From: Acidilobaceae archaeon
GTDB taxonomy: Archaea; Thermoproteota; Thermoprotei_A; Sulfolobales; Acidilobaceae
DNA length: 64,000 bases
Reading direction: 5' to 3'
Assembly: GCA_027014125.1 (NCBI GenBank)
Contig: JALWEI010000022.1
Span: 28,128 to 92,127 of the forward strand
Part shown: piece after piece, positions 47,935 through 51,119 of the stretch
Layout: each line of letters begins with the position of its first letter
Numbering within the stretch: position 1 is the first letter of the stretch
Notes under the pieces: model-generated
What the model was told of the DNA's origin: nothing
The model's database searches: none
Seen by the model: only the letters and a program-made list of their open reading frames with translations
Made by a program: the position numbers and the translations under genes

Positions 47935-48843
47935 ATGAGGCAAGAAGAGGTTCATAGGCTACTAGCAGGCATCACCGGATCAAGGAGATGCCTAGACTAT
48001 GATGCCTGCCCCCTACAGGGGGGACTCCTGGTAAACATGGACGGCTACTCCATGTCAACAAGCAGGCCCCCATGGGCCAGTATAGGAGACTGGGCATGGA
48101 GGGCAGTGGCAGCAGCTGCCAGCGACATCGCGGCCAGCGGGGGCAAGCCGCTGGGACTCATGTACAGCATAGGAGTGCCTAGCCTAGAAGAGGCGCTGGA
48201 GGCCGCGCATGGTGTCGGGAGTGCCGCTAAGTGGATCGGCGTAGAGGTACTAAAGTCGGATACAAATAAGTGTGGATGCGACTCTTGGATAGACGTTGCT
48301 ATAGTAGGAATATCGACTAGGCCTATCCCGAGGAGCGGGGCTAGGCCAGGAGACCTGGTTGTACAGGTAGGCTACTCCGGCTACGGCCTCCTGGCCAGGC
48401 TAGCGATGGAGGGTAGGATAAACATTGCCGAGCTAGGTGAGGACCTCGTCGAGATGTTGAGGAGGCCCAGGCCACCGCTAGCCGCGGGCCCACATATATC
48501 ATCCTGCGGCGCATCCGCATCCTCTGATAATAGCGACGGCCTCGGCTATACTCTGAGGGTAATCGCAGAGTCCAGCGGCGTAGGGATGGTGCTAGGGGAC
48601 CCGCTAGTAGATCCTAGGGTGCTCAGGATTCTCAGGGGTCTAGGCATGGAGGCTGGAGATGCCTACAGTAGCTGGGAGGACTATAACCTTGTAGTAGCTA
48701 TACCTGAGCCCGGGGTAGGGTGCCTCCTAGACTCGTGCAAAGCACTAGGGATCCCCTGCCGGGTCATAGGGAGGGTAGTGGAGGATAGGGGCCTAGTTTA
48801 CCGGGGTAAGAGCCTTCGGGTCGAGCCGTGGGAGTGGTTCTAG
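47935..48843 (+). CDS. thiL: AIR-synthase-related protein, probable thiamine-monophosphate kinase
   Basis: 302 aa. DACPL..LLVNMDG...[25 protein letters not shown]... follows the ThiL/PurM-like pattern. Confidence 0.6.
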
Positions 48844-49615
48844 CCTGTTCTCCTCTTCCAAGCCCTAGGGTATAGGCCTGGCTCCATGATCACCCTCTCG
48901 GGCTTGAAGGCCTCACCCCTACTGGCTTCTAGGACCTCCTCCGTGGACATGAGGGCTTTGGCTAGACCTATTAGCTCCCCTTTGAGTGTGTGCATAGCAA
49001 CTAGATCCCCCCTCTTTATCCCCTCCTGGATCATTGCTATACCCGGAACTGCCAGGGTCGCTCCGTGGACTATGCTCTCCACGGCGGTGTCCCTGAGTAC
49101 AACCTTGGGGATGCCGCATACCGTGTACTCGCCTGGCAGTATGTAGCGGCGTAGCAGATCCTCCTTGCCCTCCTCCCTCCACCTGTACAGCGCCTCGGCT
49201 AGGTCCTGGAGCCTGACCAGGCCCTTGTCCTCGTTGAAGGGACCTGTCCTGGTCCTCCTGAGCTCCCTCATGTGAGCCCCCACGCCGAGTATAAGTCCTA
49301 TATCCCAGCATAGCTTCCTCATGTAGGTGCCTGCCTCGCAGTCTATTATCATCAAGGCGTACTTGCCTGTGTACTCGAGTAGCTCTATCTTGTTTATCCT
49401 CTTCCTCCTGAGGCTCCTCTTTACGCTGCTCCTAACCGGGGGTTTCTGGTAGATCGTCCCGACGAACATTGAGACTACTTGCCTGAGCCTGTCCTCGTCT
49501 ACGGGCTTGTGGAGCTGCATTACGCATACGTACTCCTTGCTAGAGTGTATCACCGTGCCCACGATCCTGGTCATCCTGGCTAGCGCTACGGGCAGGACAC
49601 CTGTAACCTTGGGGT
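48840..49615 (-). CDS. cbf5: Cbf5 pseudouridine synthase, exon 2
   Basis: After splicing it reads (D)[19 protein letters not shown]...YQKPP...[10 protein letters not shown]... plus a C-terminal PUA domain. The frame is open 13 codons upstream of the Met called in the ORF track. Confidence 0.9.
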
Positions 49616-49650
49616 ATCCCCGCCTCCGGCCTCCTATGTGCCTAGAGGCT
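49616..49650 (-). other. 35-nt BHB intron inside the cbf5 coding sequence (boundaries ambiguous by 1 nt because of a repeated A)
   Basis: RNA is CCCU-AGA-GCCUC-(18 nt)-GAGGC-GGGG-AUA-CCCC. This gives a 4-bp central helix flanked by two 3-nt bulges on opposite strands plus a 5-bp intron helix. Removal restores the GHGGTLDPKVTG motif and the reading frame. Confidence 0.85.
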
Positions 49651-49915
49651 CTAGGGTGCCCCCGTGCCCTGCCCGCTCAAGGTTGAACATTTTCTTTATC
49701 CACGCAACCACCTCGTGGCTGGTCGGCCCTGGAGGCTTGTCTAGGTTTATCACGCCATACTCTATATGCTTCTCTATGGGCCTCTCTGTGGGTAGCCACC
49801 CGTACTTGGGATCGGTGGGTTCATCATGCTTTACATGCCACGCCCTTCTGGAGCCGCAGAACTCGTCTATCTCTTCGAGGAACCTCTTGCCCTTGCTTGT
49901 GGGGTCCTCCGACAC
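49651..49915 (-). CDS. cbf5: Cbf5 pseudouridine synthase, exon 1
   Basis: GTG start. ...[35 protein letters not shown](D) is the N-terminal TruB/Cbf5 catalytic region. The unspliced frame runs into TAG at 49634-49636. Confidence 0.9.
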
Positions 49916-49984: not shown

Positions 49985-50272
49985 CTATATTGTTGGTGCC
50001 GGCTTTACCTGCTCCCTCATAAAGTCCTCTAGCCCTGCCTTCTTTATGGCTTCCAGGACCTTGTCGTCGCTGGCGCCCTTCTCGATGTCGATCTTTTTAT
50101 CGAGAGGCTCTATGTGGTCTATATTGGCCCTCCTCCTCCTAACGCCTGTTAGGCTCTTGGGGCCCGTTATCAGTACGAAGTTCTCATCTATTATATCAAC
50201 TATGACGCACTTCCTACCCGCCTCCCTGCCGTAGACCTTGACGCAGATCCGCCCGACCTCGATCACTGCCAT
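49985..50272 (-). CDS. rpl14e: 50S ribosomal protein L14e
   Basis: 95 aa, [38 protein letters not shown].... Confidence 0.9.
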
Positions 50273-50304: not shown

Positions 50305-50883
50305 CTATATTAAATCCTTGCCCAGGGCCAGCCTGAGGCCCTCCACAGCGGCTCTATAGGCCTCTTCCCTGCCGTACGTGTAGGTGTCTATTATAATATC
50401 GAAGATGCCGAGATCCCTAACGTCGATGCCATAGTACCTCTTGAACCTCCTCCACTGGCTGTACTCCCTGGCAACTATCTCCTCTAGTGCCTCTCCGAGG
50501 CTTACCTTGTCCCTCTCAGCAACCCTTCTGGCCCTAACCATGAGTGGAGCCTTAGTGTAGACTAGGTAGTCTGCTATATCGTGTATAAGCCACGCGGCAA
50601 GGTGGCTATCGATCACGACACCGCCTCTACGAGCCTCCTCGATGGTCCTCTTGTCTATCATAAGGTCTATGCTAGGATCCGACTCTGCCATAACGCTAAG
50701 TTCTACAAGCGAGATGCCCAGCTTCCTGGCTGTCTCCCTGAAGATGGAGCCTGTGGAGAGGTAGCGGAGGCCTAGATCCCCTGCTAGCCTCCTGGCTATT
50801 GTAGACTTCCCGGATCCCGGGGATCCCGATACTACTATTACAAGCCTCTTATTATCGACTCTCTTAGGGCCTCTGCTAGGCAT
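50305..50883 (-). CDS. cmk: cytidylate kinase (archaeal type)
   Basis: 192 aa with P-loop VSGSPGSGKSTIARRLA and ...YLSTGSIFRE.... Confidence 0.88.
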   Translation of the reverse strand: MPSRGPKRVDNKRLVIVVSGSPGSGKSTIARRLAGDLGLRYLSTGSIFRETARKLGISLVELSVMAESDPSIDLMIDKRTIEEARRGGVVIDSHLAAWLIHDIADYLVYTKAPLMVRARRVAERDKVSLGEALEEIVAREYSQWRRFKRYYGIDVRDLGIFDIIIDTYTYGREEAYRAAVEGLRLALGKDLI

Positions 50884-51119
50884 GACGGACAGAGCACCCC
50901 GCCATACGGCCTCTCAGGCCTCTTACTTGTCCTGCTCATACCCCTTAGCACACTAGGCCTGGCCCTAGGGACGCCAGCTAGGGGCCTACCACACCTGGCA
51001 CACCTGGCCGGGCCCGGCCTCCTCCTCTCATACCTGGTGACAGTCCTACCTCCAGGAGTCCTCCTCTGGACCCTCCTCAGGCTCCTGCTCCTCAGTGCAG
51101 GCCTGACCATAGCGTGCAC
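50838..51119 (-). CDS. rpl34e: 50S ribosomal protein L34e
   Basis: MVRPALRSRSLRRVQRRTPGGRTVTRYERRRPGPARCARCGRPLAGV.... The likely start is ATG 51110. Confidence 0.9.
   Translation of the reverse strand: MHAMVRPALRSRSLRRVQRRTPGGRTVTRYERRRPGPARCARCGRPLAGVPRARPSVLRGMSRTSKRPERPYGGVLCPSCLAEALRESIIRGL

Follow-up and report, generated by a model that had tools for sequence, protein, structure and literature searches.

Splicing of archaeal pre-mRNAs and the cbf5 gene of the window

Splicing of the pre-mRNA of cbf5, which encodes the catalytic subunit of the H/ACA pseudouridylation complex, has been verified by cDNA in Aeropyrum pernix and in three Sulfolobus species (PMC2738675 and work cited there). 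Cleavage depends on the splicing endonuclease EndA, which recognises a structure resembling the bulge-helix-bulge (BHB) motif (PMC2738675; PMC10485636), and the cuts have been placed between the second and third residues of the bulges (PMC2738675). Most of the predicted cbf5 structures have been described as 'unconventional' or relaxed BHBs (PMC2738675; PMC10485636; PMC3241643), and later papers have termed the substrate relaxed or BHL-like (PMC3241643; PMC10485636). The published introns range from 16 to 44 bp, occur in Desulfurococcales and Sulfolobales and have been lost in Pyrodictiaceae and Ignicoccus (PMC2738675); no function of the intron is known (PMC7714728). Here, we describe the cbf5 locus in a 64,000-nucleotide stretch of an uncultured Acidilobaceae archaeon of the hot-spring type (contig JALWEI010000022.1), called the window in the following, in which a 35-nt intron inside the catalytic Asp codon splits the gene into two minus-strand open reading frames (ORFs). 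An earlier note on this DNA, made from the letters alone, had assigned the intron to the known crenarchaeal class removed by the splicing endonuclease, and this assignment is borne out: the intron is orthologous to the cDNA-verified one of A. pernix, its helices covary among relatives, and it adds nothing new on the mechanism.

The A. pernix intron (38 nt; Watanabe 2002; Yokobori 2009, PMC2738675) lies in the same host gene and at the same point of the Asp codon (CUA G|...|AY CCN). Its locus (L080 in our survey) reads ...ACC CTA G|AGCCCC...GGGGCGGGGAT|AT CCT AAA..., from which the junction rule used for the window yields 38 nt, the published cDNA-verified size. Both introns have the first four nucleotides (AGCC), the last nine (GGCGGGGAU), the central helix CCCU:GGGG and the 5' bulge AGA in common, whereas they differ in size (35 versus 38 nt) and in the inner hairpin, which is GCCUC:GAGGC in the window and GCCCC:GGGGC in A. 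pernix. The Gly codon GGG and the Asp codon GAU of A. pernix permit A:U and G:C pairs beside the 3' bulge, whereas GGC and GAC in the window lead to a more relaxed 3' site. The genes upstream differ as well, with riboflavin genes in A. pernix and an L14e-like gene, cmk and L34e in the window.

The cDNA-verified introns of the Sulfolobales (19-31 nt; S. solfataricus, S. tokodaii, S. acidocaldarius) have the same position, central helix and cut rule, and they depend on a hetero-oligomeric splicing endonuclease, as would be expected for the window (PMC2738675; PMC10485636). Five Sulfolobales loci (L058, L059, L068, L075, L076) fit the same structural alignment, with introns that are shorter, a shorter inner hairpin and proteins only ~50% identical to window exon 2. 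The BHB introns of archaeal pre-tRNAs and pre-rRNAs are recognised by the same element, in which two 3-nt unpaired segments, cut after the second nucleotide, enclose a 4-bp helix, and the enzymes expected to act on them are also the same, EndA and the RtcB ligase (PMC7714728). Unlike these, the cbf5 host is an mRNA, in which the reading frame must survive and no mature tRNA body aids recognition. The only other BHB intron reported in an archaeal mRNA, that of Haloferax volcanii HVO_1309 (PMC7714728), is likewise processed by the splicing endonuclease and differs in its location in the 5' untranslated region instead of the coding sequence, in its euryarchaeal host with a homodimeric endonuclease and in the unrelated gene.

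Two reading frames, one conceptual Cbf5 protein

On the minus strand of the window, cbf5 is split into the ORFs 49915..49634 (93 aa) and 49574..48840 (244 aa), whose frames are offset by 2 nt (35 mod 3). The 13 codons preceding the Met of the second ORF already read as conserved residues, and no ATG, GTG or TTG is found back to the previous stop. With 49650..49616 (35 nt, AGCCTCTAGGCACATAGGAGGCCGGAGGCGGGGAT) removed, the junction runs CTA G|AC CCC and is translated as Leu-Asp-Pro, so that the motif GHGGTL-D-PKVTG is recreated. The conceptual splice product is a 1041-nt reading frame of 346 codons that includes GHGGTLDPKVTG, and the gene is arranged as follows.

49651..49915, minus strand: cbf5 exon 1, with a GTG start at 49915 (from the ORF call) and 88 codons plus G49651, the first base of the Asp codon; its product comprises DKCLD and the first part of TruB_N and ends ...AGHGGTL
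49616..49650, minus strand: cbf5 intron, 35 nt, AGCCUCUAGGCACAUAGGAGGCCGGAGGCGGGGAU, identical in the independent assembly L053
48840..49615, minus strand: cbf5 exon 2, opening AC CCC AAG GUU (the last two Asp-codon bases first), with the stop codon at 48842..48840; its product holds the remainder of TruB_N, followed by TruB_C_2 and PUA

As long as the RNA is unspliced, the junction codon reads Glu in the exon-1 frame and Tyr (UAC) in the exon-2 frame; the catalytic Asp is obtainable solely by excision at the RNA level (G|...|AC). Without excision, the exon-1 frame meets a stop five codons past the junction. As a shift of both borders by 1 nt in the 3' direction leaves the mature sequence unchanged, 49650..49616 has been selected over this alternative by the rule that the cut follows the second unpaired nucleotide.

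Judged by sequence, the two minus-strand ORFs are parts of one Cbf5. The spliced 346-aa product matches the NCBIfam Cbf5 equivalog NF003280 with 453.5 bits in a single stretch, residues 25-344 lying on profile positions 3-321 of 323, whereas the separate ORF products score 90.1 and 321.3 bits, with profile positions 69-81 matched by neither. Pfam recognises DKCLD, TruB_N, TruB_C_2 and PUA in the canonical order. The alignment to Pyrococcus furiosus Cbf5 (PDB 3LWO) is gapless (2e-113) and places the residue of junction codon 89 (D89) on the Asp of AGHGGTLDPKVSG, and the exon-2 protein is 72% identical to A. pernix Cbf5. The Asp at the position equivalent to D89 is the catalytic residue in TruB/Cbf5 enzymes. 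The earlier note had read the two ORFs as the N- and C-terminal parts of one Cbf5, had described the 2-nt offset, the reading of the 13 codons before the Met and the recreation of the Asp motif by removal of 35 nt, and had derived Leu-Asp-Pro from a cut after the second bulge nucleotide. All of these strings and coordinates have proven correct, and the alignment of the conceptual protein with orthologues, which the note had recommended as a check, is the gapless one given above.

Fold of the RNA around the junctions

For a 61-nt core around the junctions, the minimum free energy (MFE) and centroid structures are identical, with -28.6 kcal/mol, z = -3.53 and none of 200 shuffles as stable. In this fold, both predicted junctions follow directly upon nucleotide two of 3-nt unpaired segments, and the 4-bp helix lies between these segments. 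The elements are listed below.

49653..49656, minus strand: central 4-bp helix, 5' strand CCCU (in the Thr-Leu codons ACC CUA), paired with GGGG 49618-49621
49618..49621, minus strand: central 4-bp helix, 3' strand GGGG, intronic (C49656-U49653 : G49621-G49618)
49650..49652, minus strand: bulge of the 5' splice site, A-G|A, which is a genuine one of 3 nt where the central helix gives way to the inner one; predicted cut 49651|49650
49622..49649, minus strand: inner intron hairpin, GCCUC(U) 49649-49644 : (G)GAGGC 49627-49622
49642-49640 and 49630-49628, minus strand: extension of the inner hairpin, GGC 49642-49640 : GCC 49630-49628
49615..49617, minus strand: unpaired triplet of the 3' splice site, A-U|A, which makes up one strand of a 3x3 internal loop; predicted cut 49616|49615
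49657..49659, minus strand: unpaired GCA facing the 3' triplet; the mismatches A49657.C49614 and C49658.C49613 relax the motif
49660..49663, minus strand: outer exon-exon helix, 5' strand GGGG, paired with CCCC 49611-49614 of exon 2 (G49663-G49660 : C49614-C49611)

The earlier note had written the fold as CCCU/AGA/GCCUC-(18 nt)-GAGGC/GGGG/AUA/CCCC and had called it a textbook BHB. These strings are exact in the sequence, the helices are reproduced by the MFE fold of an 80-nt context, and AGA is a true 3-nt bulge; the 3' AUA, which had been taken for a second bulge, instead faces the unpaired GCA and forms one strand of the 3x3 internal loop, with A.C and C.C mismatches, so that 'textbook' does not describe it. 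Measured against the strict hBHBh' motif, in which continuous helices border each 3-nt bulge on both sides and the strand facing it is fully paired, the 5' bulge conforms and the 3' site does not, and the motif of the window is thus, as modelled, a relaxed BHB. Both mismatches result from the coding sequence, as they are due to the Gly codon GGC and the Asp codon GAC. Because both strands of the outer helix are coding (GHGG and DPK), covariation is uninformative there.

Conservation and covariation among related genes

For the comparative scan, one genome per GTDB species has been used, which has resulted in 79 loci. The GHGGTL and PxVTG motifs have been located in each locus, and 79 copies, namely 78 related loci and the window, are scorable for an insert. 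Inserts of 13-76 nt interrupt 65 of the 79 copies, the window included, all in one codon phase (CTA G|...|AY CCN), and of the 63 copies scored for read-through, 55 run into a stop codon. The two codons before the Asp have been found to be uniform in most genes where an intron is present: Thr-Leu is written ACC-CTA in 54/63 intron-bearing genes versus 1/13 intronless ones, among which 11 codon pairs occur, as raw counts that ignore kinship. This indicates a constraint on the synonymous sites of the Thr-Leu codons at the level of the RNA.

For covariation, 59 loci (54 distinct sequences) have been aligned on anchors without gaps and evaluated under an explicit hBHBh' model. The central helix is paired in 100% of the alignment cells, and two of its pairs have changed on both sides, as in CUCU:GGAG and CCUU:AAGG; the inner helix is paired in 96.7% of the cells, with compensatory changes at all five of its five pairs. 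None of 500 column shuffles attains any of the observed pairing measures, and pairing falls from 90.6% to 33-63% (at most 62.5%) when the 3' partners are slid by 1 to 3 columns. Together, these measures point to a structure maintained by selection in the orthologues. Of the 54 distinct sequences, only 29 and 26, respectively, form the two outer pairs that adjoin the 3' triplet; counted across the 59 loci, both are formed (strict) in 17, one in 24 and neither in 18. A relaxed 3' site, in which both stabilising pairs are absent, is thus common among orthologues (18/59), and the window is itself among these 18, in agreement with the published description of most cbf5 motifs as relaxed. The opinion of the earlier note that this copy has an unusually clean BHB is therefore reversed, as the window belongs to the least canonical third.

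In a quick neighbour-joining (NJ) tree of the conceptually spliced proteins, made without support values, L053 and L001 are the neighbours of the window within a clade of Acidilobaceae and Aeropyrum, and the host lineage is thereby placed within the clade known to carry the cbf5 intron. The loci nearest to the window are metagenome-assembled genomes (MAGs) of Acidilobaceae and Desulfurococcales.

Four intronless cbf5 genes (L023, L040, L052, L054) are nested among intron-bearing Acidilobaceae in the same unsupported tree, which suggests that the intron may have been lost on occasions beyond the two published ones (Pyrodictiaceae and Ignicoccus). Introns above the published maximum of 44 bp have been observed in L060 and L063 (75-76 nt), L045 (67 nt) and L011 (57 nt), and the extra sequence of such long introns folds into additional hairpins within the intron loop. 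In L048, a 'Thermoproteota archaeon' MAG, the first 11 nt of the intron (AGCCUCUAGGC) are those of the window, although the exon-2 protein is only 62% identical; its central helix is the compensatory variant CUCU:GGAG.

Probable splicing and its alternatives

We hold it to be very likely that the locus is a single cbf5 gene with a 35-nt intron that is cut by EndA, after which the exons are ligated and the mRNA yields the 346-aa Cbf5. The primary transcript would probably be part of a secY-adk-L34e-cmk-L14e-cbf5 cluster. In this transcript, CCCU of exon 1 would pair with the intronic GGGG, which puts the 5' junction into the 3-nt bulge AG|A and the 3' junction into the internal-loop strand AU|A, and EndA, expected in this lineage to be of the broad-specificity (alpha-beta)2 form, would cleave both sites behind their second unpaired nucleotide (49651|49650 and 49616|49615). 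RtcB acts in exon ligation, and a ligase of this type would join the exons to CUA-GAC-CCC, so that translation of the spliced mRNA would give the 346-aa Cbf5 with its GHGGTLDPKVTG active site.

That a 35-nt insertion has inactivated the gene and left two ORFs as decaying remnants of a pseudogene is suggested by the stop five codons past the junction in the unspliced frame and by a second ORF without the catalytic Asp. Decay is difficult to reconcile with the high conservation of both halves, exon 2 being 72% identical to A. pernix and the protein aligning gaplessly to P. furiosus Cbf5, and with the conservation of the 13 codons upstream of the Met, which would be untranslatable in a remnant. 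The same-phase insert with a covarying structure recurs in 65 copies, and the A. pernix gene, for which splicing is verified by cDNA, has the same appearance; we regard a pseudogene as very improbable.

Equally improbable is a split gene, in which the 93-aa and 244-aa polypeptides would assemble without any splicing of RNA. Split genes occur in some archaea, and gene callers as well as GenBank have annotated two coding sequences (CDS) here. The catalytic Asp is encoded by neither ORF, however, and a 14-residue segment would be absent from such an assembly. The C-terminus of the first polypeptide would be EPLGT, a tail that is not conserved and is freely variable among relatives. Moreover, the same arrangement is spliced in A. 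pernix and Sulfolobus (PMC2738675).

Translational recoding, by which a ribosomal frameshift or a 35-nt bypass would link the frames, appears still less probable. The 2-nt frame offset, the stop shortly past the junction and the stable hairpin speak in its favour, features that superficially resemble those of known bypass sites. With the codon before Pro being UAC (Tyr) in the exon-2 frame, the catalytic Asp would be unobtainable in this way, and a matching pair of take-off and landing codons is absent from the edges of the gap. The insert lengths of 13-76 nt are spread over all classes mod 3 (17, 22 and 24 of the 63 copies scored), and the last intron base is freely variable among orthologues (U, G, C or A), both of which argue against recoding.

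An assembly or sequencing artefact, conceivable as the source is a MAG, is the least probable of these alternatives, given that L053, an independent MAG of a different study, has the identical 35-nt insert, that both ORF products recur on several other contigs, with 5-6 cluster members from other assemblies, and that a homologous insert is present in dozens of related genomes. A self-splicing intron of group I or group II, which would have hundreds of nucleotides and a ribozyme core that covariance models recognise, is ruled out by the 35-nt size and by Rfam, which at the gathering threshold finds only four tRNAs in the window and nothing at the cbf5 locus.

Excision by the splicing endonuclease is thus the preferred reading. 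The gene structure, the fold with its conservation and covariation and the orthology to a cDNA-verified intron are shown by the present data, and cleavage and ligation in the source organism, as well as the enzymes responsible, are what we infer from sequence. Several observations weigh against this reading. The 3' site is a 3x3 loop without a clean bulge, and one A. pernix EndA preparation has cut the 3' junction of the relaxed cbf5 substrate barely or slowly (PMC3241643), a behaviour that fits such a loop. The stability of the fold is without significance in the 80-nt context (z = -1.35). No intron-bearing tRNA has been found in the 64 kb with ARAGORN (default and -i), and neither EndA nor RtcB has been identified there, where Pfam annotation covers only the ten nearest genes, so that independent evidence for the splicing machinery does not come from the window itself. 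Finally, a scan of the whole window on both strands for relaxed BHB-like motifs (a 4-bp helix set off by 3 nt from an inner helix of 4 bp or more, with introns of up to 100 nt) has returned 4469 motifs, compared with 4578 on average for 10 dinucleotide-preserving shuffles, which is chance level, and the presence of such a motif alone has therefore been discarded as evidence. What exceeds chance is the exact registration of the motif with the junction defined by the protein; from the scan counts, we estimate a probability of ~4e-4 that a motif coincides with two cut sites fixed in advance.

Annotation of intron-bearing cbf5 genes

The earlier note had warned that such a gene is easily mis-annotated as two, and this has happened here. 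In GenBank, the 93-aa ORF is MEB3861270.1, 'tRNA pseudouridine synthase A', and the 244-aa ORF is MEB3861271.1, Cbf5, both being exact matches from a 'Desulfurococcales archaeon' MAG; MEB3861271.1 covers only the exon-2 part from the Met at 49574, and no database entry matches the spliced 346-aa sequence. In a homologue search of a 5.8-billion-protein collection, all relatives of at least 72% identity are entries of 241-276 aa without the DKCLD domain. The A. pernix entry (P0117; L080, 2181-3283), with 260 aa, likewise represents exon 2 only, begins MTGVLPVAL... and starts at the Val codon of KVTG. Full-length Cbf5 entries appear at identities of 70% and below; among those with a name are entries of Hyperthermus and Pyrodictiaceae, lineages that have been published as intronless. 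The mis-annotation of cbf5 is thus systematic among the close relatives retrieved. Automated pipelines split an essential gene into two CDS, misname its first half and lose the catalytic Asp together with 13 conserved residues. A correct annotation of cbf5 matters for estimates of completeness, for Cbf5 phylogenies and for the inference of H/ACA pseudouridylation in such MAGs.

Inserts outside the Crenarchaeota

Reviews of 2020 and 2023 restrict the cbf5 intron to Crenarchaeota or to a small group (PMC7714728; PMC10485636). In our survey, inserts in the identical codon phase have also been observed in twelve loci labelled Bathyarchaeia (L060-L067, L069-L071, L073; 16-76 nt), in a Nezhaarchaeales MAG (L072; 19 nt) and in a Woesearchaeota (DPANN) MAG (L077; 13 nt), with the junction at about 2420-2500 in each of these loci. 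The non-crenarchaeal inserts have a CCCU-type central helix with compensatory helix changes of their own. Several of the Bathyarchaeia inserts (L060, L063, L066) fold as strict hBHBh' motifs, and the insert of L077 has a canonical 3' bulge and a 5' site within a hairpin loop. In the NJ tree, the Bathyarchaeia proteins form their own clade apart from the Desulfurococcales and Sulfolobales copies. One of these loci, L071, comes from a closed chromosome, and its relatives of at least 77% identity are truncated Cbf5 entries.

With an insert in 12 of 12 loci, the intron could have been regarded as universal in Bathyarchaeia, a notion that is overturned by full-length Bathyarchaeota Cbf5 entries with an intact motif (P0144, P0156, P0201, P0243); the distribution in this group is patchy. 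Literature text searches of incomplete coverage have found no report of a cbf5 intron outside the Crenarchaeota, and priority is not claimed. On balance, we lean slightly towards the view that the cbf5 intron is much more widely distributed than the literature states. If true, the intron would either be far more ancient and have been lost many times, or it would have been gained or transferred repeatedly at a single hotspot codon, and it is only this wider phylogenetic distribution that could change the current picture.

Genes around cbf5 in the window

Upstream of cbf5 and co-directional with it lie secY, an adenylate-kinase-like gene, a membrane ORF, L34e, cmk and a 95-aa L14e-like ORF. The last of these (49985-50272) resembles ribosomal protein L14e and has no Pfam match at 1e-5. 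On its downstream side, cbf5 is followed by two genes of the opposite strand, one AIR-synthase-like and one for a CoA-transferase, and the window as a whole contains four tRNA genes. As listed mechanically, the ORFs of L34e (50838-51119) and cmk (50305-50883), both on the minus strand, overlap by 46 nt, and the true start of cmk is probably a downstream codon.

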